Shown piece after piece: positions 7,214 through 58,393 of a DNA stretch of 64,000 bases. Numbering within the stretch: the first letter of the stretch is position 1; each line of letters starts with the position of its first letter. The notes beneath the pieces were generated by a model. That model was not told the origin of the DNA. It saw only the letters and a program-made list of their open reading frames with translations, and ran no database searches. The stretch covers positions 1,271 to 65,270 of the forward strand of contig JASEGA010000006.1 in the NCBI GenBank assembly GCA_030018315.1, written 5' to 3'. The position numbers and the translations under genes were made by a program. The stretch comes from a bacterium. GTDB taxonomy: Bacteria; Hydrothermota; UBA3073; JACQXS01; JAGMCI01.

Positions 7214-7546
7214 TTACCTTCTTTCTACTCCGCTACCTTCAAAAAAGTATTCTGGGTATCTTAGTTCCGTAGCATAGATAGTGAGTTCGTGAACTCTAAA
7301 GTCTCGTAACTTATCGAAATCTATATCAATTTCTTTGCATAAATTAATTATTTCAGATAAGTCATGAGTTTTTCTAAAAATCTTTCGGTGAAACACAAGG
7401 TATGCTTTGAGATACTTCTCAATGCATTGTTGACAATGAAAACAGATTGTATCAGTAGCAGGTTCTTGAGTATTTATTTCGTCTCGGGCAACTTTTAAGT
7501 CATTTTCCGCCTTCTTTATCCATTTCTTAACATCCTCTTCTTTCAT
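7214..7546 (-). CDS. HEPN domain protein
   Basis: 110 aa with an R-x4-H signature (RKTHDL) and HEPN helices. Confidence 0.8.
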
Positions 7547-7731
7547 ATCTCTACCCCTTCTTTATGTGCGAAAAATGAAATACAACCAATACTGTTTTTA
7601 TTAAGGAAATCCCAATCACTGCCTTGGTTGTAATCGCCTCTTGCCATACTGCCGAAAAGAATGATTTTTACTATTTCTAAGCCGTTTGTTTCTATCACTT
7701 TCCTAATTACTTTTACAGCAGTTTCTAACAT
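7543..7731 (-). CDS. minimal nucleotidyltransferase (short, possibly degraded MntA)
   Basis: ILFGSMARGDYNQGSDWDFL; only 62 aa; 4-bp overlap with the HEPN gene. Confidence 0.55.
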   Translation of the reverse strand: MLETAVKVIRKVIETNGLEIVKIILFGSMARGDYNQGSDWDFLNKNSIGCISFFAHKEGVEI

Positions 7732-9631: not shown

Positions 9632-10870
9632 ATGAAAAGAGTATTTATAGGGATAATTTGTTATTTTATAACAAATGGATACGCTTTTACACAGGGTATG
9701 GATTGGGTATGTGCGACAGACAGTGCACCATGGCATGGAAGAGCATTCCATTCATCAGTTGTATTTGATAACAAGATGTGGATTATAGGCGGTGGGTGTG
9801 AAGAGGGTGGGATGGTATTAAATGATGTCTGGTATTCTTCTAATGGAGTCAAATGGGTATGTGCTACAGAGAATGCTGAATGGCTGCCAAGATGGGGACA
9901 TACATCAGTTGCATTTGATAATAAGATTTGGGTTATTGGAGGACTTGATGCTAATTTTGAGTTTAAAAATGATGTCTGGTATTCTTCTGATGGAACTAAA
10001 TGGGTATGTGCTACAGAGAATGCGGAATGGTCGCCAAGGATTGCACATACATCAGTTGTATTTGACGACAAGATTTGGGTTATTGGTGGATTTGGCTTTC
10101 CTTTTGAGTTTAAAAATGATGTCTGGTATTCTGCTACCGGAGATAGTTGGACACTTGCTACAGATAGTGCTGAATGGAATCCAAGAGCTGCACATTCATC
10201 AGTTATATTTGATGACAAAATTTGGGTTATTGGTGGATTTGACACCACTTTTATGGTTACAAACGATGTCTGGCATTCTACTAATGGAATTAAATGGGTA
10301 TGCGCAACAAATGACGCAGAATGGAGTGCAAGATATAGTCACTCATCAATCGTATGTGAGGATAAGATTTGGGTTATTGGGGGAATAGATGACTACGAGT
10401 ATATGAACGATGTTTGGTACTCAGATAATGGAAGCAATTGGTTATGTGCAACAGAAAGTGCACAGTGGTCACCAAGATATGCACATACATCATTAGTATT
10501 TGATAACAAAATGTGGGTCATTGGAGGTGAAGAAATAATAGGAGACAGTGTGAGTTATCCAACTGATGTATGGTATTCAGTTATTGCAGGAATTACAGAA
10601 AATAATGTCCAATCAGATAGACTCTATCTTAATGTTACACCAGTTATTGCAAGAGACTATGTAAAAATAAGATACAAAAATAACGGGGATGTAAAAATAT
10701 TTAATATATTAGGGAATACGGTAAGGAACTTTAAAACCGTAGACGACAGAGATGAAATAATTGTAGAATTAAAAGATAACAATGACAAAAGATTACCTCA
10801 AGGTGTATATTTTATTCAACTTAAAACCAAAGCTACCAGTGCAACTGCTAAATTCATAATCATGCAGTAG
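9632..10870 (+). CDS. Kelch/galactose-oxidase-type beta-propeller repeat protein with a T9SS C-terminal sorting domain
   Basis: Six or more repeats of NDVWYSS.G.KWVCATENAEW.PR..HTSVVFD.KIWVIGG. The C-terminal ~90 aa match the T9SS CTD pattern (LYLNVTPV...FIQLKT). Confidence 0.75.
   Translation: MKRVFIGIICYFITNGYAFTQGMDWVCATDSAPWHGRAFHSSVVFDNKMWIIGGGCEEGGMVLNDVWYSSNGVKWVCATENAEWLPRWGHTSVAFDNKIWVIGGLDANFEFKNDVWYSSDGTKWVCATENAEWSPRIAHTSVVFDDKIWVIGGFGFPFEFKNDVWYSATGDSWTLATDSAEWNPRAAHSSVIFDDKIWVIGGFDTTFMVTNDVWHSTNGIKWVCATNDAEWSARYSHSSIVCEDKIWVIGGIDDYEYMNDVWYSDNGSNWLCATESAQWSPRYAHTSLVFDNKMWVIGGEEIIGDSVSYPTDVWYSVIAGITENNVQSDRLYLNVTPVIARDYVKIRYKNNGDVKIFNILGNTVRNFKTVDDRDEIIVELKDNNDKRLPQGVYFIQLKTKATSATAKFIIMQ
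9700..10560 (+). repeat. intragenic tandem repeats of ~141 bp (Kelch blades)
   Basis: Near-identical nucleotide units repeat through the gene. They generate the spurious antisense/alternate-frame ORFs 9661-10248 and 9822-10388. Confidence 0.6.
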
Positions 10871-11563: not shown

Positions 11564-11575
11564 AATCCCTCCTTA

Positions 11576-11607
11576 AACTTTTAGACTTTTAGACTATTAG
11601 ACTTTTA
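11576..11607 (-). promoter_or_regulatory. TTTTAGACT motif site F2, upstream of nitroreductase 10976-11563
   Basis: aacttttagacttttagactattagacttttaa. Confidence 0.5.
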
Positions 11608-11609
11608 AT

Positions 11610-12017
11610 TTACTTCTCACATAGCTCAATAAGTACACCATGAACAGCACTCGGGTGCAAGAATGCCACCTTCTTAGTAAATGCACCCTTACTTGGTACT
11701 TCGTCTATTAATTTAATACCCTTAGATTTAAGCTCAGTTAATACTTTTTCAATATCTTTGACTTCAAAGCATAAATGATGTAACCCCTCCCCTTTCTTTT
11801 CTAAAAACTTCGCTATTGGACTATCCTCTCCTATAGGTTCAATAAGTTCAATCTTAACGCTACCTGCATCTCCACAGGATCCTTCGGAAAGCACAGCAAC
11901 CTTAACCTTCCGATAATCTACTTTAGCAAACTTCTCAACTTTAAGTCCAAAAGAAGCCCAAATCTTAATCCTATCCTCAATACTCCTCACCGCTATCCCA
12001 ATATGGTCAAGTTTCAT
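11610..12017 (-). CDS. methylmalonyl-CoA epimerase / VOC (glyoxalase-fold) protein
   Basis: 135 aa; MKLDHIGIAV...HHLCFEV...HGVLIELCE. It carries the short family-A insert (LSEGSCGDAG). Confidence 0.7.
   Translation of the reverse strand: MKLDHIGIAVRSIEDRIKIWASFGLKVEKFAKVDYRKVKVAVLSEGSCGDAGSVKIELIEPIGEDSPIAKFLEKKGEGLHHLCFEVKDIEKVLTELKSKGIKLIDEVPSKGAFTKKVAFLHPSAVHGVLIELCEK
11869..11889. repeat. family-A element, short form (ctccacaggatccttcggaa), in frame inside the epimerase CDS
   Basis: Same sequence as the arms of the long form but without the nested hairpin. Confidence 0.75.
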
Positions 12018-12029
12018 CTTTCACCTATC

Positions 12030-12086
12030 GTAGGGGTTTGATTTATCAAACCCAAACTTATTGGGCACGATAAATCGTACCCCTAC
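12030..12086. repeat. large imperfect inverted repeat (GTAGGGGTTTGATTTATC ... GATAAATCGTACCCCTAC)
   Basis: Arms of 18 nt with 2 mismatches. The core resembles the GGGGTTTGATTAATCAAACCCC palindrome found in the T9SS CTD copies. Confidence 0.5.
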
Positions 12087-14555: not shown

Positions 14556-14577
14556 TTAAACCTCCTCACCACTTTAT

Positions 14578-14608
14578 GACTTTTAGTCTATTACACTTTT
14601 AGATTTCC
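14578..14608 (-). promoter_or_regulatory. TTTTAGACT motif site F3, upstream of alanine dehydrogenase
   Basis: gacttttagtctattacacttttagatttcc. Confidence 0.5.
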
Positions 14609-14647
14609 TTATTAAAAATCAAACCTGACACCAAAGATTCTCATTAA

Positions 14648-17620
14648 TCATGCCATCGCTTCTAACATCTTTTCAATGTTATCAAACCAATATTGTTTAT
14701 ACTCAGTAAGAGCTTTCGAAACGTCCTCTGGTCTTAGGAGCAATTTTATTCTGACTTTGAATCCGTTGTGATTAAAAACCCTTTCTTCTCCGTTTTCCTC
14801 GAATAATGCTTTATACCCATCAATTTTCCTGTAAGCACTTGTATGTTCTGTCCCCTTTGGATCAACAAAAACAATAAAGTAGTTATCTCCTTTCTTTAAC
14901 CAGAAAATAAAATCTGGGTAAAATCTGCTGATTTTATTCACATTAGGATTATAATACGGAATATAAATTTCGTCTAAACTTTCATCCAATTTGCTAAACA
15001 ACCACCAATCGAACATTTTAAATTTGTTAGCATTTTTAACTAAATAATTTTCCAAATCATTAATGAACTTTACCTCGCTTGAAGTCTTGATAACGTGCTT
15101 GATGTAATCTATCTTTTCGTCATCAGACAGTATAAGTGGAAGGTAGTAATGATTAGCAATGTACTTAATTCTCAGTTGTTTACTTTGATACTCTACTCTT
15201 TCCTCTCTGACCATCCGAGCAGATTCCTTGATACCTTCCGTGTATTGTTCTAAAGTAATTTCCCTACGCCCGTATTTCTCCTTCAACTCTCTTTCCAATA
15301 CAGAGGGGTCTTTGAATTGGCGGATAGCTTCAATTTTCTTTTGTATTTCGTTGATATCTTTCAAATACACCCTGATATTCTTAAAATGTTTTATCTCTTT
15401 CTCTAATTCTTTAAGCCCTTCAAATTCCTCTGGAACGACACTGAGGTAATCAAAAAATCTTTGAATAAGCAAATCTACATTTTTAAAACCTTTTTCACCA
15501 AACTTAAAATTGCTTTGATTATTCAATCTCCTTCTTAAAAGTTCTATTTTTATGGGTTCTGTGTTATATCTCATCAAGAATACTCTGTCATCTGGGACAA
15601 ACTCATTAAATTTATTAAGTACCTCAAAATCCTTAGTGGAAATCTCAAACTTTATTGGTTCTTCGGTCTTCAAAAGAGGATAATTTGCTGATTTGTATGT
15701 TGGCACCAGCAATTTATGTTTTCGAGCCTCATCATTCACAAAGAGAGAAAGTTGAGCCTCCCCCTCTCTTTTTCTTTCTCTCTCCAACTCCTGAACTACT
15801 TTAGCTAAAGCACTCCTGTTTGTTGCAAAAATAAATAGAGTTTCTATTGGTAAGACTTTATTTTTGATTTTGTTGAATAACTCCTCCCCATCTATCTCCT
15901 TTGCATTGTAAACTTGTAATAACCTCTTTCTTTTGTCCCTTATTGGTTCAATTCTTACTCCTCTCCCAACAGATTGTAAAATAAATTTTTTTGCATCCTC
16001 TCCCATTCCTATATTGATAAAATTGATTACATTGGGTCTATTAGAATCCCACCCTTCATAAAAACCACGAGAGCCCATCAAGATATTGATCTCAGAATTT
16101 TCTCTATTCAAATTTTCAAAATAACTTTCATCTTCAAATCTTTCTTGAACTTCGTATCCTGCAAGTTTTTCTTTTAGCCATCCTGATATATCACCTATTT
16201 TTATCAATGCAAAATGTTTATCGCTTGTCTTTAACTTAAACGCCAGCTCCTTCTTATTGGATGGTCTTCTTAAGATTTCAATTTCTCCACCTGATTTTGA
16301 GTTGTAAACATAGTTCAAAATATCTTCTTTTGTAATGTTTTTAAAAATTGTTTCGTCTATTTTTATTTTCCTGCCATCTTCAAATATAAACTCAGGCTCT
16401 TGCTTTAACTCATCCCATAGTTCGTTAAGAGCATTCTTAAAAACTTCTTGTTCAATCTCTTGTTTTCCAATTTTTTCAAGTTCTCTAAAAAACAGCTTTA
16501 GGTCAGCATCTTCCTTATTAACAGAGTTGACAAGGGTCAAAAGCAATGGCTTATGATATAAATCTGATCGGATATTCTTAATATCTTCATAAAATTTTTT
16601 CACATAAGTCAGAAGGATTAATGATTTTAAGACTATCTTCTGCTTCTCATCACCGCTATAATCTTCCTCATTTCTAAATGCCCTTATTTCTTGCTTTAAA
16701 ATAGTAATGTGCTTTCCGTATCCAGAATTTATAAAACTTGATAGGTTAAATTCAAAAGCACATGTGATAACATCTCTTGGGTCTATAAAGGTTGCTGAGG
16801 AATTAAATAGAAACCCCTGTCTTGATAGGATGGAATAAATATGCTGTCTTTTTGACTCTTCCTTATCTCCTTTATGTGCCTCATCGAGAAAAATATACCA
16901 TTTCCCATCGTTGTCGTAATTTTTGAAGTCTATAATTTTTTCTTTCTGCTCATCACTTAAGTTATCTGAGCGGTAATAAAATACGGTAATCCCGAATAAT
17001 GTTGGTTGTCTTTTAACCTCAGGATAATCTTTGAGCTCTTTTAGAATTATTCTGGGTTCGTTTACATAGTTGAATTCATCTACATGGTGTTTAAGTTGCC
17101 CTATTAAGTCGTCCCTGTGAGTTAAAATTAGAATATCGTATAGTGGAATTTCTTTTCTTTTAATTAACTCTGCTAAAATTTGGATAAGTTTAATGATAAC
17201 AAGGCTCTTTCCACTTCCTGTTGCCATCCAAAAACACATCCGATTGATAAGATGCTCATAAGGGATTTTCCCATCTTCTCGAGGATAATATCCTGTAAGA
17301 AGGTTATAGATGTTCCTTTTCCTCTTATCTAACTTAATATCTAAATTTTCATCTAATCCATTATCTTTATACCAGTTGAAAAACTTTTGTTTTCTTTCTT
17401 GATAGATTTCTAATCTTTCACCGTCTTGATAATCTACAAAATCTTCAAAATACTTCCAGATAACCTTTACAGCATTTTTAACTGCCTCTTGCTGATAATC
17501 CCAGAGTTTCTTGTTCTTGGAAAAACTCTCCAAATCAAAAGAATTCCAGTTAGCAGGTAAATCTTCAAATCTTAAATCTTCAATTATGTCCTGTAAGAAT
17601 ATTCTTACCATTTTTACCAC
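14648..17620 (-). CDS. Type III restriction enzyme Res subunit (SF2 helicase plus C-terminal PD-(D/E)xK nuclease)
   Basis: 990 aa with Walker A MATGSGKS, DEAH box FLDEAHKGD, a helicase C-domain, and a C-terminal VFVDPKG motif. The start overlaps the Mod stop. Confidence 0.8.
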   Translation of the reverse strand: MVKMVRIFLQDIIEDLRFEDLPANWNSFDLESFSKNKKLWDYQQEAVKNAVKVIWKYFEDFVDYQDGERLEIYQERKQKFFNWYKDNGLDENLDIKLDKRKRNIYNLLTGYYPREDGKIPYEHLINRMCFWMATGSGKSLVIIKLIQILAELIKRKEIPLYDILILTHRDDLIGQLKHHVDEFNYVNEPRIILKELKDYPEVKRQPTLFGITVFYYRSDNLSDEQKEKIIDFKNYDNDGKWYIFLDEAHKGDKEESKRQHIYSILSRQGFLFNSSATFIDPRDVITCAFEFNLSSFINSGYGKHITILKQEIRAFRNEEDYSGDEKQKIVLKSLILLTYVKKFYEDIKNIRSDLYHKPLLLTLVNSVNKEDADLKLFFRELEKIGKQEIEQEVFKNALNELWDELKQEPEFIFEDGRKIKIDETIFKNITKEDILNYVYNSKSGGEIEILRRPSNKKELAFKLKTSDKHFALIKIGDISGWLKEKLAGYEVQERFEDESYFENLNRENSEINILMGSRGFYEGWDSNRPNVINFINIGMGEDAKKFILQSVGRGVRIEPIRDKRKRLLQVYNAKEIDGEELFNKIKNKVLPIETLFIFATNRSALAKVVQELERERKREGEAQLSLFVNDEARKHKLLVPTYKSANYPLLKTEEPIKFEISTKDFEVLNKFNEFVPDDRVFLMRYNTEPIKIELLRRRLNNQSNFKFGEKGFKNVDLLIQRFFDYLSVVPEEFEGLKELEKEIKHFKNIRVYLKDINEIQKKIEAIRQFKDPSVLERELKEKYGRREITLEQYTEGIKESARMVREERVEYQSKQLRIKYIANHYYLPLILSDDEKIDYIKHVIKTSSEVKFINDLENYLVKNANKFKMFDWWLFSKLDESLDEIYIPYYNPNVNKISRFYPDFIFWLKKGDNYFIVFVDPKGTEHTSAYRKIDGYKALFEENGEERVFNHNGFKVRIKLLLRPEDVSKALTEYKQYWFDNIEKMLEAMA

Positions 17621-20210
17621 CAGATTAAAGGTTTAATGAGTTTGTAATCTAAATTTTTAAGGTCTATTTTTTCTCCATCCTCAAATTCCACTTCATCAGC
17701 AGATATTCTCTTTATCCACTTTCCTAAAATGTTAGAAAGTGTCTCTGGAACGTCTATGTTTGGATAAAGTTTTGATAAATCCACCTTTACTTTATTATTC
17801 TCATAATCTATTTCTAACGCAGAAAGCATTTTCAAATCCCGCATAAAAACATATTGATTGTATGGGTCTTCATAAGGATTTTCAAATAAATCTGAATCCT
17901 CATATTTCGCTCTCCTTAAAGTATCCTCGTATTGCTCAAGTTCGTAGTATTTGAAAAATCCTCCACCTTGCCAGTTTACTTCTTTGGAGATACCACAAGG
18001 TTCATGATTGCCTTTACCTGCCAACACTTCTTTCATTCTCGGAAGAATAGTATCATAAAAATAGTTGCCCATTTCAATCCCAAGCCATTTCCCCCTAACT
18101 TTTGCATTACTGCGGTGGTCGTTCCAGAACCCAGGAAAAAGTCCAATATTAAATTTCGTTTTTCGTAATTCGATAGCTCCATTACTTTATTAATAAATGC
18201 TTCGGGTTTTTTACCGCTTCCAAAATAAGCAGGACCTTCATATCCAGTTCTATTGAATTCATTAACCATATCAAAATAGTTTGGATAAGGTATCTCTTTG
18301 ATTTCACGTTTATTTACTGGAATCCCTTGAAAATAATCACCATTGTTCCTTTTTGATGACTTATCAGGGATACAAAAATAACGGTAACCTAATCCATCAT
18401 TTCCCATCTCATGAACTTTAAATAAGTAACCTCTATAATTTTCAAAATTCGGTTCGAGATACTTTACATAAAATCTCCCACTAGAATTCCCTTGTCGAAT
18501 AGACCCTCGTATATTGATTCTTTTTAGCTGTTTTTCGCCTGGATTTAGCTGTACAAATTCATATGAACCAGGTTTAAATACCTCCACTTTTTTACTGCTG
18601 AAATTCAGAACTAAATCTGCTCTCTTTTGTTCTTTTACTTGCCAAATGTATTCATTTATTGATGTATTCTCCTTTTTTATTTTTTTAATCATATGATTTT
18701 TACTTTTTCTATAATATAAAAGATTCTCTACAACTTCATGGACTTCCTTGTCACCTTTCAGTATTCTTTCTTCATGTCTAACTTTAATAACAAAATTTGC
18801 CAGGTAATTAGCGTCAGTAAATACCATATCTGTAATATGCTTTAAGTTATAAAGTTCATTTTCATTAATACTTACACAGATATTTCCTGTATCTCTTAGA
18901 AATTCTTTTGCCATTTGTAGCCTATTTAATATCATTGTTAGCCAAGTAGAATGTTGAAACTTGTCTTTATAAATAAATTCATCACTGCCAGTATTATAAG
19001 GCGGGTCAATGTAAATCGTCTGCACCTTTTCTTTAAACTTCGGCAAGATCGTTTGCAATGCTTGATAGTTTTCGCTTTTTATCAGCCAGCCATCTAAGGC
19101 GTTATCTAAATCGTCAAACAAGCCTAAAATTTCAAGTTCTAAATCCTTAAAGTATTTTGTATCAATTGGCAGATGCTGGTATTTAGAATTTAGAGATTCT
19201 TCGCTATCGCTCAGAATGTCAGAAGAGGCGAAGTTATCAGCCACAATCCCTAATTCTTTCCAATCTTTTACCTGTTCATTAAAGTTCTTGTGATTTAATA
19301 TTTTCTCTACAACTTCAATGCTTTTATCTGCTATCTTATCCAGAGTTATCACATAGTTTGAGTTTAAAGCAAACTTTGGCTTATTCCAGATTTTTACAAG
19401 CTCGTCTTCAAATTGAGAAATAAAATTAATTATCTTAAATGCTATATCTTTTAAGGTTTGTAATTGTTTTATCCTTTCTTCTGTCCAATCGCTTTCACCA
19501 GAGAAAACATACTGATAAAGCCAGATATTAAATTGCTCTTTTAAAAATTCTTTTGCATTTTTGTTGATGAAAAAATCTACCTCGCTCTGCTTCTCAAAAA
19601 CTCTAAAAGCATTCTCTAATATATCATCCGTTATTCTTATCCCTTCTTTCTTTAATGTCTTCAAAATCTCATCAATTTTTGTTATCTTACCTCGCTCAGA
19701 ATAAGAAACATTGAAAACAATTATCCCATCATTCCTTTTCTTTTTAAATTCAAAAATTATCTCTTTTTTCTCAAAGGCTTTCTTATGCTCTAATCGTGAG
19801 ACATCAAAGAAGAATTTGAAACCGTCTATTTCTACTTCCAGATTTTTAAACAACCTATCAGTTTTGACATAATAAAGCATATGCGTTTTCCAGAAGAGCA
19901 TCGTATCTTTATCATCGGTATATACATTCTCATAGACATTTTGATGAATTGGGGTATATCTAAAATAAATAGAACCGCTTTCTGAAAAATAACGATTGAA
20001 GAAGGTGTAGAGTTTATCAAAAAGCTCTTCTCTAAATCCTGGAAACGGATTTAATGCCTCTTCTAAGTCCTTTTGAAGTTTTGGAAAGATACCTTTTTCA
20101 TAGTATCTTGATTTAATCCTCATCAAATTGATGTATCCAGATTCTCCTTCTACCTTTGCACCTACAAAGATGTCTTTTAATGCGTTATAGAATTTTTCTT
20201 CCTTAGTCAT
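17614..20210 (-). CDS. Type III R-M Mod N6-adenine DNA methyltransferase, with an apparent 1-bp frameshift in a G5/C5 run (18091-18095)
   Basis: DPPY motif IV (YIDPPYNTGSDEF) precedes the FFLGSGTT AdoMet motif, i.e. beta-class order. The track splits it into 18033-20210 and 17614-18072; G6 instead of G5 would read ...KLGGKWLGIEMGNYFYD... continuously. Confidence 0.8.
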
Positions 20211-20741: not shown

Positions 20742-20993
20742 TCAACTCATAGTGACCGCCTCGTATTTTCTCTCTTTAAGACTCCGTGCCTGCACCTCAA
20801 GATGCTTATACCGCTCAAAATCTGCAATATCCTCAACTACTCCTTCTTTCCATTTATACCTCCTTTTACTCAAACATATTAACAAAATTTCGTGAAGAGA
20901 AAACTTAGAGGTCTCACCTTTAATCCACACATCACTATCATTTTCTTGCTTCGTCATTCGACATTCGCCCTGAATCAAGTTCAGGGTCGTCAT
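20742..20993 (-). CDS. small hypothetical ORF coupled to the MCM stop (TAATG); doubtful
   Basis: 83 aa with no motif. Its 5' region overlaps a hairpin/heptamer-repeat element (20949-20986), so it may be non-coding. Confidence 0.25.
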   Translation of the reverse strand: MTTLNLIQGECRMTKQENDSDVWIKGETSKFSLHEILLICLSKRRYKWKEGVVEDIADFERYKHLEVQARSLKERKYEAVTMS

Positions 20994-22576
20994 TAAAACA
21001 CAAACTTCTCTTTGTATTCACCAAACACTTCCCTTAATACACTACAGATCTCACCCAATGTAGCGTAGCACTTGACACAGTCAATGATTGGTTCCATAAG
21101 GTTGCCATTATCTTCTGTTGAACCTCTGCCCTGAGCAGAGCGAAGGGAAAGTGAAGCATCTCGAAGAGTCTTTAAAGATGCATTCACTTTACGATTATCC
21201 CTTGTTGACTTCAACTTTTTTAGTCTTACTATCTGCTCTTCTCTTACCTTTGGGTCTACTTTCAGTATATTTTTAGTGTAGTCCTCTTCACCTTCTACAA
21301 ATCTGTTAACCCCAACAACTACTTTTTTACCACTCTCAATTGCTTTCTGGTATTCATACGCACTATTATGAATTTCATGCTGAAAGTAACCAATCTCAAC
21401 TGCCTTTAAGGCGCCACCAATTGAGTCTATCTTGTTTATATACTCCATAGCTTTTGCTTCAATATCTTTAGTAAGCGATTCTATATAATAAGAACCACCA
21501 AGTGGGTCAATAGTGTTAGGGACACCGCTCTCATATGCAATTAGCTGCTGTGTCCTCAATGCAAGCCTAACCGCTTCTTCACTTGGCAATGCGAGTGCCT
21601 CATCCATTGAATTAGTATGTAAACTCTGTGTGCCACCAAGAACAGCAGCAAGTGATTGGAATGCAACTCTTACAGCATTGTTTTCGGGCTGCTGAGCAGT
21701 CAATGTACAGCCGGCAGTCTGGGCATGAAATCTCAGCATCCATGACTTTGGGTCTTTAGCATTAAATCTTTCCTTCATTATCTTTGCCCATAGCCGCCTG
21801 GCAGCACGAAATTTAGCTATCTCTTCAAAGAAATCGTTGTGTGCATTAAAGAAGAATGATAGCCTTGGTGCAAATGAGTCTACGGTAAGCCCACGCGCAA
21901 TAGCTGCCTCTACATAAGCTATAGCATTAGCAAGTGTAAATGCAAGCTCCTGTACTGCAGTTGCACCTGCCTCTCTTATATGATAACCGGAGATTGAGAT
22001 TGTATTCCATTTAGGTAAATATTTACTACAATACTCAAATATATCTATTGTAAGCCGCATTGATGGGACAGGTGGAAATATATATGTGCCACGTGCAATG
22101 TATTCCTTTAATATATCATTTTGAACAGTGCCCGAAAGTAGCTCCCTTGATACACCTTGCTTATTAGCGACTGCTATATACATTGCAAGTAGTATAGGAG
22201 CAGTTGAATTTATTGTCATTGAAGTGCTTACTTTATCAAGAGGGATGCCATCAAATAAAGCCTCCATATCCAAAAGTGAATCAATAGCGACACCAGTTTT
22301 ACCAACTTCTCCCTCAGAAAGTGGATGGTCTGAGTCGTAACCCATCTGAGTCGGTAAATCAAATGCTACTGATAGCCCTGTCTGTCCCTGTGCAAGTAAA
22401 TATTTATATCGCTTATTAGACTCCTTTGCACTCGCATAGCCAGCATACTGACGTATAGTCCATAGTCTACCACGATACATATTAGGATAAATACCACGTG
22501 TAAATGGATACTCACCAGGAAACCCAATGTCCCTTAAGTAATCTAAATCTTTTATATGTTTAGGAGTGTATAACAT
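20993..22576 (-). CDS. methylmalonyl-CoA mutase-family large subunit (catalytic TIM-barrel domain, split type), with an in-frame family-B element insertion near the C-terminus
   Basis: 527 aa with [23 protein letters not shown] and [14 protein letters not shown]. The extra ~15-17 aa [15 protein letters not shown](NG) near the C-terminus are absent from the paralog at 30172-31785. Confidence 0.9.
21124..21168. repeat. family-B palindromic element (reverse orientation), in frame within the MCM CDS
   Basis: ctctgccctgagcagagcgaagggaaagtgaagcatctcgaagag. It shares GAGATGCTTCAC and GCCCTGAGC modules with 31797-31875 and 40361-40415. Confidence 0.75.
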
Positions 22577-22577
22577 T

Positions 22578-22605
22578 GAAAGTCTAAAAGTTCTTAACTT
22601 TTGAG
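22578..22605 (-). promoter_or_regulatory. AGTCTAAAAG motif site F4 (inverted orientation), between the four-helix gene and the MCM start
   Basis: gaaagtctaaaagttcttaacttttgag. Confidence 0.4.
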
Positions 22606-22946
22606 ATTAACACATTTAACATTTTTATTATTTCATTTAACAAAGCTATCTGGTCTCTCACTATACTCTTATCAAGAAAACTAACCTCCCTACATTTAAT
22701 ATACCAATCTCGACTCTCGGTAGCTTCCCCTTTTGCCACTCCTAAGTGATAACTAAATTCTTTACGACTTTTTCTACCAAACTCCTCTGCTATGTTAGCA
22801 CTGATAGAACCGACAGCTGATATAAGTTGATTAGCAATTATCTTTGCCGCAACAGTTGCTGGAAACTTCTCAACATCTTTAACAGCAAGGGCAAACAGTT
22901 CCACAGCCTTCTGCTAGACAACTAAGTCCTGAAACTTTCTCACCCT
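22584..22946 (-). CDS. four-helix-bundle protein (PF05635 / 23S rRNA-IVS family), with an in-frame TAG at the conserved Trp codon
   Basis: The upstream extension reads [23 protein letters not shown]...; the family consensus is LxVWQKA, so TGG appears changed to TAG. The track ORF restarts at a CTG at 22904. Confidence 0.55.
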
Positions 22947-22952
22947 CTCCAT

Positions 22953-22980
22953 ACTTTTAGACTCTTAGACTCTTATTCTA
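22953..22980 (-). promoter_or_regulatory. TTTTAGACT motif site F5, upstream of the four-helix-bundle gene
   Basis: acttttagactcttagactcttattcta. Confidence 0.5.
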
Positions 22981-23467
22981 TTATTACTAATGTATCGCCC
23001 CCATTTACCGTCATCCCCTGTTTGACAAGTACCTGCTTAACAAGCCCATCTCTTGGTGCCTTCATCTCATTTTGCATCTTCATCGCCTCAACTATCAAAA
23101 GACCACTACCCGCTTTTACTGTATCACCTGGCTTTACCCCTACTTCTATAACTAACCCTGGCATGGGAGCAGTGACCTTAACTTCACCAACATGAGTAAT
23201 CTCAGGCTTGAGTTTAGTGAGTGCTTGTACTTGCTCATCCTCAACACTTACCTTGAATCTCTCACCATCTACCGAAATAGTATTCTCATCCTCAATAATA
23301 ACATCATACGACTTGTTATCAACTATCAGTGATAAATGTGAATTACTGCCAACCTCCACAACAGTAGCTTTCATAGGCTTGTTATCTATATAAACTTTGA
23401 ATCCATTACCTTCTTTTTCTAACTCAACTTTGAACTCCTTATCATCAACTTTAGCAATATATGCCAT
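22973..23467 (-). CDS. biotin carboxyl carrier / biotinyl-domain subunit
   Basis: C-terminal EAMKM biotinylation motif (VEAMKMQNEM) plus a ~90-aa N-terminal extension. Confidence 0.85.
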   Translation of the reverse strand: MAYIAKVDDKEFKVELEKEGNGFKVYIDNKPMKATVVEVGSNSHLSLIVDNKSYDVIIEDENTISVDGERFKVSVEDEQVQALTKLKPEITHVGEVKVTAPMPGLVIEVGVKPGDTVKAGSGLLIVEAMKMQNEMKAPRDGLVKQVLVKQGMTVNGGDTLVIIE

Positions 23468-23480
23468 TTATACTGTCTTA

Positions 23481-23511
23481 CTTTTAGACTATTAGACTTT
23501 TAGTCTATTAT
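23481..23511 (-). promoter_or_regulatory. TTTTAGACT motif site F6, upstream of the biotin carrier gene
   Basis: acttttagactattagacttttagtctatta. Confidence 0.5.
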
Positions 23512-25010
23512 CACATCTTTCTCAATTCTGCCTGCCTCGCTGCAAACTTCCATGCACTGTAACGGGATTCGGATACTTTTGGGATAACTGAAACTTTCTT
23601 CTCTTTTAATGTCATCGCAATGGTTGCCCCTATAGCGGCAATGGGCTGGTTTGTCTTCTTTAATTCTGTGCTACCAAGCATCTTATCTACAAATGTTGTA
23701 TTATACTCACCACTTATAAAATATTGATTATTCATTACAAGCTGATGAAATGGTATACTTGTCTTAATCCCTATTATCTTATATTCAGAGAGTGCTCTCC
23801 TCATCCTTGATATAGATTCATCTCTCGTAGGTGCCCATACAAGTAACTTTGCAATCAACGGGTCATAAAACATAGGAACTTCAAATCCAGCAAATACTCC
23901 ACTATCTACTCTAACACCAGGTCCATTAGGCTCTATTAACTCAACTATTTTACCAGTTGATGGCATAAAGTTATTATCCGGGTCCTCAGCAGTTATCCTG
24001 CACTCTATAGCTGCACCTGATAATTTTACATCCTCTTGCTTAATTGATAGACGCTCACCTGCTGCTATCTTAAGCTGCTCCTTTACAATATCTATTCCGG
24101 TGACAAGCTCAGTTACAGGATGCTCAACCTGTAGCCTTGTATTCATCTCAAGGAAGTAGAAGTTCCTGTCTTTGTCTACCATAAACTCAACTGTCCCCGC
24201 ATTTGTATAACCTGACGCCTTAACTGCCTTGACTGCAGCAGCACCCATCTTAGCTCTAAGCTCTTTAGTCATCAAAGGTGAAGGCGACTCCTCTACTAAC
24301 TTCTGATACCTACGCTGAATAGAACACTCACGCTCACATAGATGGACTGCATTCCCATAGTTATCGGCAAGTATTTGAAACTCTATATGACGAGGAGAGT
24401 CAAGATACTTCTCAATATATATTGTTGGATTACCAAATGCAGACTTGGCTTCTGACATCGCTTGCTTCATAGCTGGCTTAAGCTCAGACTCAGACTTCAC
24501 TACCCTCATCCCTTTGCCACCACCACCAGCAGCCGCTTTTATAAGAACAGGAAAACCTACTTCATTCACAACCTTAATGGCTTCAGCTTCACTTGTAAGC
24601 CCTTTACTGGAACCGGGAGTCACAGGCACTTTAGCTTTAGTTATCGTCTTCCTTGCTTCAATTTTATCACCAAGTAGCCTTATAGCTTTGGAGTTGGGAC
24701 CAATGAATATTATATTATGAGACTCACAAGCCTCTGCAAAATATTCGTTTTCAGCTAGAAAACCATAACCTGGATGAATAGCGTCAGCATCCGTCTTCTT
24801 AGCTACTTCTATAATCTTGTCTATCTTAAGGTAGCTCTCAGCTGCAGGTGCCGGCCCTATCTCATATGCCTCATCTGCATACCTTGTATGCAATGCACTC
24901 CTGTCAGCTTCTGAATAAACTGTAGCTGTAAGTATACCAAGCTCCTTACACGCCCTAAGTACCCTTATTGCAATCTCACCACGATTCGCTACTAAAACCT
25001 TCCTAATCAT
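23511..25010 (-). CDS. biotin carboxylase subunit (acetyl/propionyl-CoA carboxylase or pyruvate carboxylase A-type)
   Basis: 499 aa; MIRKVLVANRGEIAIRV..., an ATP-grasp fold, GGGGKGMR. Confidence 0.92.
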   Translation of the reverse strand: MIRKVLVANRGEIAIRVLRACKELGILTATVYSEADRSALHTRYADEAYEIGPAPAAESYLKIDKIIEVAKKTDADAIHPGYGFLAENEYFAEACESHNIIFIGPNSKAIRLLGDKIEARKTITKAKVPVTPGSSKGLTSEAEAIKVVNEVGFPVLIKAAAGGGGKGMRVVKSESELKPAMKQAMSEAKSAFGNPTIYIEKYLDSPRHIEFQILADNYGNAVHLCERECSIQRRYQKLVEESPSPLMTKELRAKMGAAAVKAVKASGYTNAGTVEFMVDKDRNFYFLEMNTRLQVEHPVTELVTGIDIVKEQLKIAAGERLSIKQEDVKLSGAAIECRITAEDPDNNFMPSTGKIVELIEPNGPGVRVDSGVFAGFEVPMFYDPLIAKLLVWAPTRDESISRMRRALSEYKIIGIKTSIPFHQLVMNNQYFISGEYNTTFVDKMLGSTELKKTNQPIAAIGATIAMTLKEKKVSVIPKVSESRYSAWKFAARQAELRKM

Positions 25011-25388: not shown

Positions 25389-25670
25389 TTGAAGAAAGCA
25401 AATCCCAAATCCAAAATATCCGCAGGATCCTGTGGATTGGAGGCATATCCTAATCCATTTAGGGATAAAACAGTGATTAGGGTTCAGGGATTAGGTAGGG
25501 GTTTGATTAATCAAACCCCTACACTACAAATTTATGATTTAGCTGGCAGAATAGTTAAGTCGTTCCCACTAATCACTAGCCACTTATCACTATCCACTGC
25601 TGTTTACTGGGACGGAAGTGATAACGATGGCAAGAAGCTCGGTACCGGAAAAATGCTAATTTTGAGATAG
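25389..25670 (+). pseudogene. orphan T9SS C-terminal sorting-domain fragment, a duplicate of the CTD of 27570-28121
   Basis: AYPNPFRDKTVIRVQGLGRGLINQTPTLQIYDLAGRIVKSFPLI... is ~85-90% identical at the nucleotide level to the reverse complement of 27640-27850. It has no cargo domain and starts at a TTG. Confidence 0.45.
25496..25521. repeat. perfect 26-bp palindrome TAGGGGTTTGATTAATCAAACCCCTA inside T9SS CTD coding sequence
   Basis: Self-complementary; a second exact copy lies at 27764-27789. It encodes GLINQTP. Confidence 0.8.
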
Positions 25671-27569: not shown

Positions 27570-28121
27570 TTATCTCACAACAATTATTTTCTTTGTTATA
27601 CTTTTATTACCAGTAGTAAGCTTGCAAAAGTATACACCTGAGTCAACAAATTTTCCAGCTTCATCCTTACCATCCCAAGAAACAGCAGTGATTAGTAAGA
27701 AGTGATCAGTGATAAGTGGAAAAGACTTAACTAATCTACCAGCCAGATCATAGATTTGTAGTGTAGGGGTTTGATTAATCAAACCCCTACCTAATCCCTG
27801 AATCCTAATCACTGTTTTCCCACTGAATGGATTAGGATATACTTCTAACAATTCGTCATTCGTCATTCGGATTTCGGATTTTACCGTCTCTTCTACTCCA
27901 TAAGCATCAACCTTTATAAGATATACATCAGACTCTCCTGCCCCATATGACCAAGTAGATCCAGCTATAATATAGCCACCGTCTCTCGTCTGTGCCACTG
28001 AGTAACCGAAGTCCCAATGAGTTCCGCCATATGTCTTTTCCCAGCCAGCAGATACTACATTAGCCAAACCTGGTAACCCCAATATAGTCACTATTACAGC
28101 CTTAGCAATCAACCTTAACAT
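27570..28121 (-). CDS. small secreted repeat protein with a T9SS C-terminal sorting domain
   Basis: Signal peptide; YGGT.WDFGYSVAQTRDGGYIIAG repeat; C-terminal CTD VYPNPFSGKTVIRIQGLGRG... Confidence 0.7.
   Translation of the reverse strand: MLRLIAKAVIVTILGLPGLANVVSAGWEKTYGGTHWDFGYSVAQTRDGGYIIAGSTWSYGAGESDVYLIKVDAYGVEETVKSEIRMTNDELLEVYPNPFSGKTVIRIQGLGRGLINQTPTLQIYDLAGRLVKSFPLITDHFLLITAVSWDGKDEAGKFVDSGVYFCKLTTGNKSITKKIIVVR
27764..27789. repeat. second copy of the 26-bp perfect palindrome TAGGGGTTTGATTAATCAAACCCCTA
   Basis: Exact match to 25496-25521. Confidence 0.8.
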
Positions 28122-28170: not shown

Positions 28171-29022
28171 TCAATGAATAGGATTCAATTTAAGCTTGCC
28201 TTCATCTTCACTTAAATACCCCATCCCAATTTTTGGGTCATGCTCAAATATAAGTAGCCAGTGTTCTTTAACTGCTATATTTAATAACTCTCTCTTCTTT
28301 TTCATTGTCTCTAATGGATACAAGTCATAACCCATCACATAGGGTAGTTTGATATGTGATGTTGTTGGAATCAAGTCAGCAAGATATAAAGCTTTTCCAC
28401 AGGATCCTTCGGAATTACCATGTGACTCAATTAACACAACTTGATGTCCTGCTGTATGCCCACCAGTCACAATAGTTTTAACACCCGGCACAATTTCTGT
28501 ATCCCCATCTATTAGATTAAGTAAACCAGCCTCTTCAATAGGGACCAAATTCTCTTTTAAATAGCTGGCACGAGTACGCTCATTTGGGTTGATGGCAGCA
28601 TCCCACTCACCACGTTGTATTACATATTTAGCATTCGGAAATGATGGAACAAGCTTGCCATTTTCAATCCTTGTGTTACCGCCACAGTGGTCAAAGTGGA
28701 GGTGTGTATTTATAACAACACCTATAGAGTCGTGGCTAAGTCCAAGCTTTTGTAAAGAGTCATTTAAATTACAAGTCTTATCTACCCTATACATACCCTT
28801 AAATTTTTCATCCATTTTTTCGCCAATCCCTGTATCTACAAGTATATTTTTATCACCTACTTGTATCAATAAGCAATTAAGACCAAGCTCAATCCTGTTT
28901 TCACTATCTGCAGGATTAAGTCTGTTCCAGATGACCTTAGGCACTATACCAAACATAGCACCACCATCAAGCCAAAACTTGCCATCTGAAAGGAGTTCTA
29001 AATTAGACTCGCCAAATCTCAT
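28171..29022 (-). CDS. MBL-fold metallo-hydrolase, with an in-frame short family-A insert
   Basis: [10 protein letters not shown] (HxHxDH) motif. The likely start is ATG 29020-29022, in an ATGA overlap with the upstream B12 subunit stop. [13 protein letters not shown] contains the family-A short form. Confidence 0.8.
28396..28414. repeat. family-A element, short form (tccacaggatccttcggaa), in frame inside the MBL hydrolase
   Basis: Same 19-mer core as 11869-11889. Confidence 0.75.
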
Positions 29023-29414
29023 TTCTTTACCACCCCCTTTATCCACTTCACTATTTCAGTAGTTGGAGTCCCGGGTCCAAATAGCTTTTTAACGCCTTGT
29101 TTCTCAAGTGCCTCCATATCTTCTTTTGGAATTATGCCACCACCACAAACAACTATATCAGCTGCACCTTTAGACTTAAGTAGTTTAACAATCTTTGGGA
29201 ATATAGTCATATGGGCACCGGATAGGATTGATACCCCTATCACATCTACATCCTCCTGAATCGCAGCCTCTACAATTTGCTCAGGTGTCTGGTGCAGTCC
29301 AGTATATATGACCTCCATCCCCGCATCTCTTAAGGCAGCAGCTACTACTTTTGCCCCCCTATCGTGACCGTCAAGCCCCGGCTTCGCTACTAATACTCTT
29401 ATCTTCTTTGCCAT
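29019..29414 (-). CDS. methylmalonyl-CoA mutase small subunit (cobalamin-binding domain)
   Basis: 131 aa; [19 protein letters not shown]... carries the DxHxxG B12-binding motif. Confidence 0.9.
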
Positions 29415-30171: not shown

Positions 30172-31785
30172 TTACCAGAATATCGGTGGCTCTTCGTATT
30201 CACCAAATTCTTCACGCAAGACATCACACATCTCACCAAGTGTAGCATAGACTCTGACAGCATCCAATATCTTAGGCATCAGATTATCACCACCCTTAGC
30301 TGCATCCCGTAATTCACGGAGTGTCTCCTTTACTTTAGTTGTGTTCCTTTCCTTCTTTAATTGCTTAAGACTTTCTATTTGTTGCTTTTCTACTTCGGGT
30401 GGTATCTTAAGTAGCTCTATCTTAGCTGGCTCTTCTTCTACGAACTCGTTTACACCTACAATTATTCGCTCTTTTTTTTCTATCTCTTTTTGGTACCTAT
30501 GTGCAGCTTTTGCTATCTCAAGCTGGAAGAAGCCTTTCTCAATTGCTGGAATCACTCCGCCAAGGGCAGAAATCTTATCAAAGTATTCATAGGCTTGGTG
30601 TTCTAATTTATTTGTTAATGCCTCAACATAATAAGAGCCACCAACTGGGTCTATAGTATTGGCAACACCTGTCTCGTATGCTATGAGTTGCTGTGTCCTC
30701 AGTGCTATTCTCACTGCCTTCTCTGTCGGTAAAGCATAAGTCTCATCCATTGAATTTGTATGCAAAGATTGAGTTCCACCTAAGACTGCAGAAAGTGCCT
30801 CAAATGCTGTCCTTATAATATTATTTTCAGGCTGTTGTGCAGTTAAAGTGCAGCCAGCTGTCTGTGTATGGAATCGCATAAGTAATGACCTTGTGTCTTT
30901 AGCCCCATATTTATTACGCATCTCCCTCGCCCATATACGACGGGCAGCTCTATACTTAGCAATCTCTTCAAAGAAGTCAATATGTGAATTGAAAAAGAAT
31001 GAAAGCCGAGGTGCAAACTTATCCACTGGAAGACCAGCCTTCATCCCATACTCTACATATGTAAACCCATTTGCTAAAGTAAAAGCAAGCTCTTGAGTAG
31101 CAGTTGAGCCTGCCTCCCTTATGTGATAACCGGAGATAGAAATAGTATTCCACTTTGGGACATAGTCTGAACAGTATGCGAGTATATCTGTAATAATACG
31201 CATAGAAGGCTCAGGTGGATATATCCATGACTTTTGTGCCTGATACTCTTTAAGGATGTCATTTTGGATAGTGCCTGTCAGGACTTCGGATGGTACACCT
31301 TGTTTCTCACCTACTACTATATACATAGCAAGTAGCATAGCAGCAGGTGCGTTTATAGTCATTGATGTAGAGATACGGTCAAGTGGTATACCATCAAATA
31401 TTATCTCCATATCACGAAGTGAGTCTACTGCTACACCACAACGGCCAACTTCACCCTGTGAGAGTGGGTGGTCTGAATCCCTGCCATAAAGGGTAGGAAA
31501 GTGAAATGCAACAGAGAGACCAGTCTGCCCCTTGCTTAATAAGTATTTGTATCTCTTATTTGTATCACGAGGAGTGCCGAAGCCAGAAAACTGACGCATC
31601 GTCCAAAGTCTGCCACAATACATTGTAGAATAGACACCTCTTGTAAACGGATACTCACCAGGGAAACCGAGTGCCTCCGTATAATCAAGGTCCTTAATAT
31701 CCTCTGGAGTATACAAAATTTTTACTGGCTCACCTGACACTGACTTAAATTGAGACCTCTTATCTTTTAGATTCTGTGTATCCAT
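30172..31785 (-). CDS. methylmalonyl-CoA mutase-family large subunit paralog (catalytic domain; MCM or ICM-like acyl-CoA mutase)
   Basis: 537 aa, ~65% identical to 20993-22576 over conserved blocks; it lacks the family-B insertion. Confidence 0.9.
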
Positions 31786-31796
31786 CTTTTCCTCCC

Positions 31797-31875
31797 GAGG
31801 AGATGCTTCACTACGCTTGCCCTGAGCCTGTTGAGATTCTTTCCTTCGCTACGCTCAGGATCAGAGTGACAGGCG
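31797..31875. repeat. family-B element (two tandem modules) in the 5' leader of the MCM paralog
   Basis: gaggagatgcttcactacgcttgccctgagcctgttgagattctttccttcgctacgctcaggatcagag, with CCTGAGC / GCTCAGG inverted arms. Confidence 0.7.
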
Positions 31876-32120
31876 AAAAGTTCAGCATGACATACATCAT
31901 TTTTACACCAAAAAACTCAAAAGTCAAGAAAAAGCTGCTTTGTTGAATAATTCACTTTACAAAACTTGCAACACCTTGATTGACACCGATTTATGAGATT
32001 CTTCACTTCGTTCAGAATGACAAGGTCAAAATTGTCTAAAACCGAGTCAAAGGTTGAAAATCAAAGGTGCCAAAAATATTTATTCAACAAAGCAAGAAAA
32101 AGCAAAAATTATCAAATTTA

Positions 32121-40360: not shown

Positions 40361-40415
40361 GAGATGCTTCACAGAGCCTGCCCTGAGCCAATCCGCCTGA
40401 GGCGGAGAAGGGTTC
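40361..40415. repeat. family-B element copy in a convergent intergenic region
   Basis: gagatgcttcacagagcctgccctgagccaatccgcctgaggcggagaagggttcag, including the CCGCC-TGA-GGCGG hairpin. Confidence 0.7.
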
Positions 40416-40419
40416 AGTA

Positions 40420-40650
40420 TTAAACTATTATAGAAGTAGTTGTAGAACGCACACCGTCTATCTCATGTATCTTTTCGGCAACTACTTCACCAAGTTTTAA
40501 TAGGTCATCAGCTTGCACGCGGACTATTACATCATAATATCCTGTAACTATATGAGCTTCTTTTACATCAGGAAGCTTCTTCACCTTTTCTAAAACCTTA
40601 TCAACTTTTCCTGCATCCGTGTTTATAAACACATAAGCTGATATTGCCAT
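40420..40650 (-). CDS. stand-alone Lrp/AsnC-type RAM (ligand-binding) domain protein
   Basis: 76 aa; beta-alpha-beta-beta-alpha-beta ACT-like pattern (VFINTDAGKVDKV...HIVTGYYDVIVRV). Confidence 0.65.
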   Translation of the reverse strand: MAISAYVFINTDAGKVDKVLEKVKKLPDVKEAHIVTGYYDVIVRVQADDLLKLGEVVAEKIHEIDGVRSTTTSIIV

Positions 40651-52867: not shown

Positions 52868-53836
52868 GTGCTTTTTTTATTAGTATTTTTTACTTTTACA
52901 GTTCAAGGCGATACCTCCCCTAAGCGGTTCCTTTATGGAGTAAATGTAGAACATGGTGAGAACTTGACACAGGTAGCAGAAAAACTTTATGCCCAAGGTA
53001 TAATAGAACACAAATTTTGGTTTAAGGTGTGGGCTAAAGTTACAAACCAAGACCGTAATATTAAGGCTGGTTACTACATTTTTAAAAAGCCTACCCCAAT
53101 TCGTGAAGCGTTAAGAACACTTGTTGAGGGCAGGAATGCAGGTATAAGAGTTACAATCCCTGAAGGTGCAACACTTCGTGAAATTGCGTGGCTATTCAGG
53201 AGATATGGGGGAGTCAATAAAGAAGAGTTTATTAGGCTTGCACATGACACTTCTTATATAAGAAGCTTTGGTATACAAGCGAGCTCCCTTGAGGGCTACC
53301 TTTTTCCGAAGACTTATTTTATTCCATATGGAACGAATCCAAGAGAAGTGATACCATTTATGATTGAGCAGTTTTTTCAAGTCTTTGGTGAAGATTTTTA
53401 CAATAGGTCAAAAGAAATAGGGTTTACACTTGAGGAGGTAGTAACTTTTGCCTCCCTTATTGAGAAAGAGGCTGTATGTGATTCTGAGAAGCCTATAATA
53501 TCAGGAGTCTACCATAAGCGGCTTAAGCATAAATGGCCACTCCAGTGTGATGCTACTATTCAATACATTTTACCTGAACGAAAGCCGCGTCTTACTTACT
53601 CTGACCTTTCCATCCATTCCTTATATAACACTTATATTTATCAAGGTTTACCTCCCGGTCCTATATGTTCACCTGGGGAGAGTTCTATCAGAGCTGCATT
53701 ATGGCCGGATGAGACTGATTATTTATACTTTGTTGCACGTGGTGATGGCACACATATATTTTCGAAAACCTTGAAAGAGCATCAAATTGCAAAAGAGAAA
53801 GTTAGAGAGAAACAAGAAATGACGAAATCCAAATGA
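52868..53836 (+). CDS. mltG: endolytic murein transglycosylase MltG (YceG family)
   Basis: N-terminal TM; YceG-like domain (…GYLFPKTY…; …YFVARGDGTHIFS…). Confidence 0.85.
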   Translation: MLFLLVFFTFTVQGDTSPKRFLYGVNVEHGENLTQVAEKLYAQGIIEHKFWFKVWAKVTNQDRNIKAGYYIFKKPTPIREALRTLVEGRNAGIRVTIPEGATLREIAWLFRRYGGVNKEEFIRLAHDTSYIRSFGIQASSLEGYLFPKTYFIPYGTNPREVIPFMIEQFFQVFGEDFYNRSKEIGFTLEEVVTFASLIEKEAVCDSEKPIISGVYHKRLKHKWPLQCDATIQYILPERKPRLTYSDLSIHSLYNTYIYQGLPPGPICSPGESSIRAALWPDETDYLYFVARGDGTHIFSKTLKEHQIAKEKVREKQEMTKSK

Positions 53837-53839
53837 CGA

Positions 53840-58355: not shown

Positions 58356-58393
58356 ACAGAAATGTATGGGCGGGGTAACCCCGCCCCTACGAA
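58344..58393 (+). repeat. E-family REP-like element (TCATTGATGTAGACAGAAATGTA-GGGCGGGGTAACCCCGCCC-CTAC), copy 1
   Basis: GC hairpin GGGCGGGG-TAA-CCCCGCCC followed by a T6 run. Its first 12 nt encode S-L-M-stop of the preceding gene. A partial copy lies at 58436-58447. Confidence 0.8.

Follow-up and report, generated by a model that had tools for sequence, protein, structure and literature searches.

The closest described precedents for a repeat that is translated as part of a protein are the Rickettsia palindromic elements (RPEs; Ogata et al. 2000, 2002). [quoted passage not shown] A different kind of precedent comes from repetitive extragenic palindromic (REP) sequences and REP doublets forming hairpins (REPINs), where solo arms, the REP singlets, are apparent remnants of two-armed elements (PMC3337134, PMC3116915). 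REPINs are mobilized by REP-associated tyrosine (RAYT) transposases and have been described as mostly vertically inherited and extragenic (PMC3116915, PMC3337134). The present analysis concerns a 64,000-nucleotide stretch (the window) of contig JASEGA010000006.1, from a metagenome-assembled genome (MAG) of the WOR-3 lineage, and within it MCM1, one of two paralogous genes for the large subunit of an acyl-CoA (methylmalonyl-CoA) mutase. A fragment of an interspersed hairpin repeat resembling MITEs and REPINs very probably sits in frame inside MCM1, where it would be translated as 12 amino acids that the paralog, MCM2, lacks.

The insert stands out most simply when the two paralogs are compared (coordinates are collected in Table 1). 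The proteins are 63% identical, and the sole sizeable gap in their pairwise alignment falls in the C-terminal region, between LRDA and NLM, where 17 residues of MCM1 face AKGGD of MCM2. The MCM1 codons read CGA GAT GCT / TCA CTT TCC CTT CGC TCT GCT CAG GGC AGA GGT TCA / ACA GAA GAT AAT GGC AAC CTT ATG, the slashes enclosing a net gain of 12 codons. A preliminary description of this DNA had put the gain at about 16 codons, which is too many; its translations of both mutase open reading frames (ORFs) were quoted correctly, and tests stronger than those proposed there support its central claim, namely that a short interspersed repeat has inserted into coding DNA with the frame left intact, as comparison with the paralog shows. 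The GC content of the insert is 0.56, against 0.40 for the remainder of MCM1. The gene itself is intact, with neither frameshift nor stop; a database entry identical to it (P0001) contains PF01642, its nearest solved structure is HcmA (4r3u_A, E 1e-175, aligned over residues 3-527), and it keeps every residue that is invariant across an alignment of 61 homologous sequences. From these features MCM1 can be classed as an acyl-CoA mutase large subunit (PF01642), substrate specificity being left aside.

Comparison with a wider set of homologs shows the inserted segment to be foreign to the mutase gene family. Among the 120 best matches to MCM1 in a collection of 5.8 billion proteins, 117 have a canonical linker of five residues (six in seven cases) without the insert, and HcmA (4r3u) also lacks it. 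The nearest ortholog, P0002 (79% identity), is encoded in a syntenic cluster of another WOR-3 genome (locus L001), in the order MeaB, mutase, B12-binding subunit, carboxyltransferase, biotin carboxylase, biotinyl carrier, mutase, so that both mutase paralogs are kept in the same arrangement there; its site is empty, reading AGA AAA GCC / GCC AAC GGC AAT TCA AAC CTT ATG. In the window, the B12-binding subunit is encoded at 29019-29414. A linker shared among orthologs, which the preliminary description had named as the observation that would speak against insertion, is thus not what was found. The source organism is a relative of candidate division WOR-3; the best named matches of its BamA protein are from WOR-3 (67%, on the 374-kb contig of P0002) and Ca. 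Stahlbacteria.

The MCM1 insert itself was seen in one genome only, at what is the most length-variable spot of the C-terminal region in the homolog comparison. Two other orthologs, P0006 and P0008 (74-75% identity to MCM1), carry a different 10-residue insert in the same loop, unrelated in sequence and made of in-frame tandem oligomers (CAGAACA repeats; ACACCGCTCACCGA twice), and have further in-frame inserts at two sites elsewhere (octamers GGTTCAAR and then CCCCTAC; GGGGTAGATGAGAGCCCC twice). Neither the window nor the short contigs of these orthologs yielded additional copies of the inserts, which are at best candidates for a repeat origin; they argue mainly for a permissive site in an insertion-prone lineage.

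Parts of the insert region recur elsewhere in the window. The 12-mer GAGATGCTTCAC occurs exactly at 21151-21162(-), 31800-31811(+) and 40361-40372(+), and with one mismatch allowed there are five matches where 0.24 are expected, a number reached in none of 100 shuffles. The 9-mer GCCCTGAGC occurs exactly at 21128, 31819 and 40380 (0.18 expected). The recurrence of these modules in the 5' leader of MCM2 and in the spacer at 40361, as reported in the preliminary description, therefore stands, with the qualification that their relative orientation in MCM1 is opposite to that in the two intergenic copies. These two copies share a 29-nt pattern that within the window is common only to them. The insert aligns best not with their GAGATGCTTCAC-N6-TGCCCTGAGCC layout but with a TTCGCTnnGCTCAGG arm, and its best collinear partner in the window is 31838-31870 in the MCM2 leader (CTTTCCCTTCGCTCTGCTCAGG-GCAGAG against CTTT-CCTTCGCTACGCTCAGGATCAGAG), with a Smith-Waterman score of 29; shuffled versions of the query average 22.4 +/- 1.9, and none of 150 attains 29. 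Random real 36-mers from the window were also tried as a null; 34 of 148 scored at least 29, and this control was dropped in favor of shuffles on account of the many paralogous genes in the window. A stretch of 22 nt at 50572-50594 that resembles the 3' part of the insert region was set aside as probable chance similarity. The shorter related arm listed in Table 1 matches the opposite arm of the repeat profile described below weakly (E 0.086), and directly 3' of the MCM1 stop, at 20940-20990, lie modules TTCGTCATTCGACATTCG and a hairpin, CCCTGAA-cttgat-TTCAGGG, that is a weak match to the arm profile (E 4).

The strongest evidence that the insert is a repeat comes from beyond the window. A GTDB scan (one genome per species) with the pattern GAGATGCTTCAC-N(4-16)-GCYCWGRGC, taken from MCM1, returned 48 loci, against our estimate of about 28 by chance, and most of them look unrelated. 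Eleven copies lie in the Chloroflexota genome MAG-37 and one in an Anaerolineae MAG, however, and all 12 have the 14-nt spacing of MCM1, reading GAGATGCTTCACTTCCCCTTCGCTTnGCTCAGGGC..GAAGGTTCAGCATGACA. The arm in MCM1, GAGATGCTTCAC...GCTCAGGGC..GGTTCAGCA (21162 to 21116 on the minus strand), is identical without gaps to a 10-copy Chloroflexota consensus at 41 of 47 positions (87%), of which 21 matching positions were forced by the scan pattern; at the positions left free, 20 of 26 agree (binomial p ~4e-8 by our calculation). When an nhmmer profile was built from the Chloroflexota copies alone, the best match in the window was 21166-21115 (41 bits, profile positions 122-173 of 230), with an E value of 3.7e-12 that is inflated because the copies had been found with a pattern from MCM1; the second was the MCM2 leader. 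Dispersed copies now comprise three arms in the window, 12 in the two Chloroflexota MAGs and 15 at metagenome loci, and those outside the window are not in long ORFs: the longest stop-free frame through 22 other copies examined is at most 193 aa, compared to the 527-aa ORF of MCM1. As judged by these alignments, the comparisons show that the MCM1 segment has its homolog in a repeat of many copies, the others of which are located outside long ORFs.

In MAG-37 the element is a bona fide MITE. It measures 144-192 nt in the nine copies in which both terminal inverted repeats (TIRs), GAGAGTGTTGAAAA and TTTTTCAACACCCTC, were located, most copies have visible target-site duplications (TSDs) of 5-8 bp (e.g. 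TATCTC, GCTTTA, ATGATT, ACCCGCA, GTGTTCTT), and there is no long ORF. Some copies have an extra internal CGCTCAGGGCAAG unit. The full Chloroflexota elements fold as single long hairpins (z -3.6 to -8.2), and the arm that matches MCM1 is the 3' half. The left arm of the hairpin carries GCCTGCCCTGAG and the right arm its partner GCTCAGGGC, and this layout explains the puzzle of module orientation in MCM1: the plus-strand GCCCTGAGC within the gene is the right-arm GCTCAGGGC of a minus-strand copy, and in the two intergenic window copies GAGATGCTTCAC is succeeded, without a change of strand, by a GCCCTGAGC module of the left-arm type. The latter arrangement, at first considered a separate family B, was also found on 15 JGI metagenome contigs, all with 50-64% GC, where the match reads GAGATGCTTCACGGAGCnTGCCCTGAGC-(3-5 nt)-CGAAGGGTTCAGCATGACA, a layout shared by the copy at 40361-40420, and where many contigs have left-arm-like sequence (...GAGCGCAGCGAAACATCTC) and a variable spacer upstream. 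Family B (31800, 40361) is a variant of the same arm.

The coding copy, by alignment, corresponds to the 3' arm, beginning with GAGATGCTTCAC on the loop-proximal side and stopping just short of the terminal TGACA. It is a single arm, with no partner arm and neither GAGAGTGTTGAAAA nor TTTTTCAACACCCTC, and it thereby lacks the inverted repeats at both ends by which a MITE is recognized and which its full-length relatives in another phylum possess. The palindromic element of the preliminary description is accordingly one arm of a palindromic family, and the insert region shows no significant RNA or DNA fold relative to shuffles (z = -0.82); mobility, which that description also claimed, is shown only for the full-length relatives in another genome, by their TIRs and TSDs. 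The MCM2 leader at 31794-31893 is likewise without significant structure (z 0.08), as is one B-type metagenome copy (z +0.99), the folded segment of which did not include the start of the left arm. Because none of these folds is significant, a role for the coding copy in RNA structure was rejected.

The similarity of MCM1 to the family begins exactly at GAGATGCTTCAC, which is a sharp conservation boundary in every copy, and the first 7-8 nt of the arm therefore lie on the codons for Arg472-Asp473-Ala474, residues that MCM2 shares and codes as CGG GAT GCA. At the other end the similarity overlaps T487 and fades past GGTTCA-ACA. In the frame of MCM1, a complete arm would read GGT TCA GCA TGA, ending in a stop, where MCM1, in our reading of the sequences, has GGT TCA ACA GAA. 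The tetranucleotide TTCA occurs on either side of the 36-nt net insert (GCTTCAC...GGTTCAAC), and both copies of it belong to the element consensus.

Set against known systems, the MCM1 insert resembles an RPE in being in frame, in a loop, and absent from orthologs of a conserved gene. It differs in that RPEs are whole elements of ~100-150 bp confined to Rickettsia, whereas MCM1 holds just one arm, of 36-47 nt, in WOR-3 and with relatives in other phyla; because host, size and architecture differ, it is not a member of the RPE families, a distinction drawn without sequence comparison. The MAG-37 relatives, with TIRs, TSDs, many copies and no long ORF, are like the in-frame bacterial MITEs; the MCM1 segment differs from these in having no TIR, convincing TSD or partner arm, and in the window the copies occur as solo arms. 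A unit of two inverted arms with a short, variable spacer between them, the occurrence of solo arms and the sharp loop-proximal boundary recall REPs and REPINs, from which the family is set apart by its span of phyla with 38-64% GC and by its coding copy; no Y1 transposase was detected among the 12 window ORFs scanned against Pfam, and no search aimed at RAYT was made. The bacterial interspersed mosaic elements (BIMEs) of enterobacteria are extragenic. Copies of the present family are likewise mosaics, built of GAGATGCTTCAC, GCCCTGAGC/GCTCAGGGC, TTCGCTnnGCTCAGG and GTTCAGCATGACA in varying order and nesting, but one of them is coding, and a sequence relation to BIMEs is not expected. In functional terms, the MCM1 case can be regarded as an instance of the RPE and in-frame-MITE phenomenon, real and not unprecedented.

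As a whole the family is a mosaic of short modules, conserved at its arm ends and common to very different bacteria. Rfam gave no match at gathering score in the window or in four Chloroflexota loci, a literature text search for the diagnostic sequence strings yielded only unrelated primer matches, and a literature search on WOR-3 and repeats found nothing relevant. A search of a viral collection for the arm terminus gave a single match and hence no sign of phage carriage. Tentatively, one might go further and propose an undescribed superfamily of mosaic hairpin repeats, with conserved ends TGTCATGCTGAAC ... ATCTC / GAGAT ... GTTCAGCATGACA and 80-90% identity across WOR-3 (38% GC), Chloroflexota and high-GC soil bacteria, whose modules may routinely colonize permissive protein loops in WOR-3 genomes. 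Candidates for such colonization may include MCM1, the two inserts in each of P0006 and P0008, and two window proteins described below, namely the secreted protein of 27570-28121 and the ORF at 50231-52048 with its three EVRPQ 15-mers. If true, this would be an RPE-like process at scale outside Rickettsia.

The absence of the TIRs and of the partner arm makes a clean cut-and-paste of a full element an unlikely route into MCM1. The leading guess, held with about even confidence, is that part of the element was copied in by template switching or illegitimate recombination, with junctions at short identities to native codons: GAGATGC with the Arg-Asp-Ala codons (CGG GAT GCA in MCM2) on one side, and GCA/ACA on the other. 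It is also reasonably possible that a longer insertion occurred and was trimmed later. By either route, selection would keep only products that preserve the frame and are free of stops, and the stop-bearing terminus of the arm would be missing or mutated in MCM1. We infer this route, like the junctions, from the sequence.

Several observations weigh against the view that MCM1 contains a repeat fragment, or against the details of its proposed entry. The similarity of the 36-nt insert to other parts of the window is only moderate, significant and not overwhelming, and 64 kb of DNA show just three arm copies. The scan that recovered the Chloroflexota copies began from MCM1, with the forced identities noted above. 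The microhomology argument rests on 7 + 3 nt, and with the closest relative only 79% identical the pre-insertion sequence and the junctions are undefined. Finally, with a paralog present, MCM1 could be relaxed or dying.

The consequences for the protein can be considered with the help of an AlphaFold2 model (61-sequence alignment, mean pLDDT 79.5). In the model, helix 461-482 reaches into the insert, pLDDT is <50 for residues 484-488, and another helix follows at 494-502; the insert is thus predicted to extend one C-terminal helix and to add a floppy, low-confidence loop before the next. We infer that it is a tolerated, translated passenger and that the enzyme probably still works, because the ORF is intact and all family-invariant residues are kept. 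It is unlikely that the repeat-derived peptide has been retained for a useful function, for example because it changes how the C-terminal helical region of the large subunit meets its B12-binding partner or the chaperone MeaB, or because it sets MCM1 apart in function from MCM2. A lengthened helix with a flexible charged loop, in a protein otherwise fully conserved, would suit such a role, and the different insert of P0006 and P0008 indicates that the site has been repeatedly modified. However, the insert is confined to one genome and coincides with low pLDDT, and the unrelated sequences of the inserts in other orthologs fit a permissive loop better than a selected function.

There is only a slight chance that MCM1 is a decaying duplicate, its insert tolerated because MCM2 does the work and its ORF simply not yet broken. 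Two paralogs in one cluster, together with the usual avoidance of essential coding DNA by repeats, would be in keeping with decay, but both paralogs are syntenic in the WOR-3 relative, and the full set of invariant residues in an unbroken frame argues the other way. Ordinary expansion or slippage of the loop within the gene, with a chance likeness to repeats, is highly improbable. The linker is indeed variable in length, the insert is short and its likeness to other window sequences modest; against this stand the 20 of 26 free positions that agree with a consensus from another phylum, the exact GAGATGCTTCAC present three times in the window, the elevated GC of the insert, and a match that starts exactly at the conserved arm boundary. 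A repeat-induced chimeric join, to which contigs of a MAG can be prone, is scarcely credible, because an independent Logan assembly of run SRR23186779 has a contig identical over the whole MCM1 gene including the insert, while both flanks belong to the same gene in frame and a mis-join would not yield a precise gain of 36 nt.

The presence of a repeat fragment in MCM1 provides a clean natural pair with and without a repeat peptide, since it is found in one enzyme and in neither its paralog from the same operon region nor its syntenic ortholog. The case carries the phenomenon of translated selfish repeats beyond Rickettsia and a few MITE examples into an uncultured WOR-3 lineage, and brings to light a short repeat family with cross-phylum conservation that is absent from Rfam. 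For annotation, such modules would account for odd loops specific to a lineage and for many of the spurious small ORFs in MAGs; for protein evolution, the case points to an acyl-CoA mutase loop that tolerates insertions of 10-12 residues.

Table 1. Positions of the mutase genes, the insert and related repeat copies (window coordinates unless a locus is named)
Feature	Position	Strand	Description	Basis
MCM1	20993-22576	-	Acyl-CoA (methylmalonyl-CoA) mutase large-subunit family, 527 aa, insert host	ORF and translation
MCM2	30172-31785	-	Paralogous mutase large-subunit gene, 537 aa, canonical linker (empty site)	
Net insertion in MCM1	21119-21154	-	36 nt, in frame, 12 codons S475-S486	Codon-level comparison with MCM2 and L001
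Repeat-arm similarity in MCM1, full extent	21115-21166	-	Core 21116-21162: GAGATGCTTCACTTTCCCTTCGCTCTGCTCAGGGCAGAGGTTCAACA	nhmmer profile, ungapped identities
Composite solo arm, MCM2 5' leader	31794-31893	+	Starts GAGATGCTTCAC, holds TGCCCTGAGCC and nested GAGATTCTTTCCTTCGCTACGCTCAGG, ends GTTCAGCATGACAT	nhmmer E 6e-6
Shorter related arm, same intergenic region as MCM2 leader	31995-32025	+	GAGATTCTTCACTTCGTTCAGAATGACA	One-mismatch 12-mer match
Intergenic solo arm, B layout	40361-40420	+	GAGATGCTTCAC-AGAGCC-TGCCCTGAGCC ... GAAGGGTTCAGTAT	Sequence
Tandem-oligomer inserts of P0006/P0008	L004 ~977-1048, ~2024-2068; L005 ~7358-7417, ~7556-7600			
MAG-37 hairpin MITE loci (JACIWX01)	L008, L023, L025, L033, L034, L037, L041, L043, L045, L050		At least 11 genome copies	

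Other repeats of the window, some of them within genes, were noted in passing. Mapping the recurrence of 10-mers, in an attempt to find modules in ORFs, produced too much AT-rich noise to be of use. Three exact copies of a palindromic 15-mer, GAGGTTAGACCTCAA (GAGGT-tag-ACCTC), lie at 50552-50566, 51182-51196 and 51740-51754 in a 605-aa ORF with an N-terminal HHH_3 domain, 50231-52048(+), where 0.10 occurrences are expected even with two mismatches. The three copies share one reading frame, in which they encode EVRPQ, and have unrelated flanks; repetition that is exact to the nucleotide suggests a module at the level of DNA, embedded in frame. The gene at 27570-28121(-) encodes a 183-aa secreted protein with the C-terminal sorting domain of the type IX secretion system (T9SS; PF18962). 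Two modules within it, at 27852-27881 and 27762-27797, are candidate insertions: KSEIRMTNDE is coded by AAATCCGAAATCCGAATGACGAATGACGAA and GLGRGLINQTPT by the palindrome GTAGGGGTTTGATTAATCAAACCCCTAC, and they recur intergenically at 53808-53847 and 12030-12057. A 197-nt inverted repeat, 25437-25633 / 27652-27848 (83%), represents a second, truncated copy of the region coding for the T9SS tail, the duplicate being 25389-25670(+). A 412-aa ORF at 9632-10870(+) is made up of six tandem repeats of ~147 nt (49 aa) that are 64-82% identical.

Between genes, three consecutive plus-strand genes are each followed by a repeat of 53 nt (58338-58390, 59853-59905, 60898-60950) that has the perfect hairpin GTAGGGGCGGGGTAACCCCGCCCCTAC at its end and resembles an element of REP or terminator type. 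Octamers of the TTAGACTN type (TTAGACTTTTAGACTATTAGAC), in tandem, are found at gene boundaries, at 1262-1294, 11573-11620, 14567-14614, 22949-22988 and 23468-23523, and flank the biotinyl-carrier gene that adjoins MCM1 at both ends. Directly upstream of MCM1 lies a gene for a 23S-rRNA-intervening-sequence protein (PF05635) at 22584-22904(-), as also occurs in L005 (5490-5795), and L001 has only a 40-aa ORF at this position. Downstream of MCM1, at 14648-20210(-), a DNA methylase (PF01555) and a ResIII/SNF2 helicase form a type III-like restriction-modification pair, which is present in the same order in the WOR-3 relative (L001 11853-17104).

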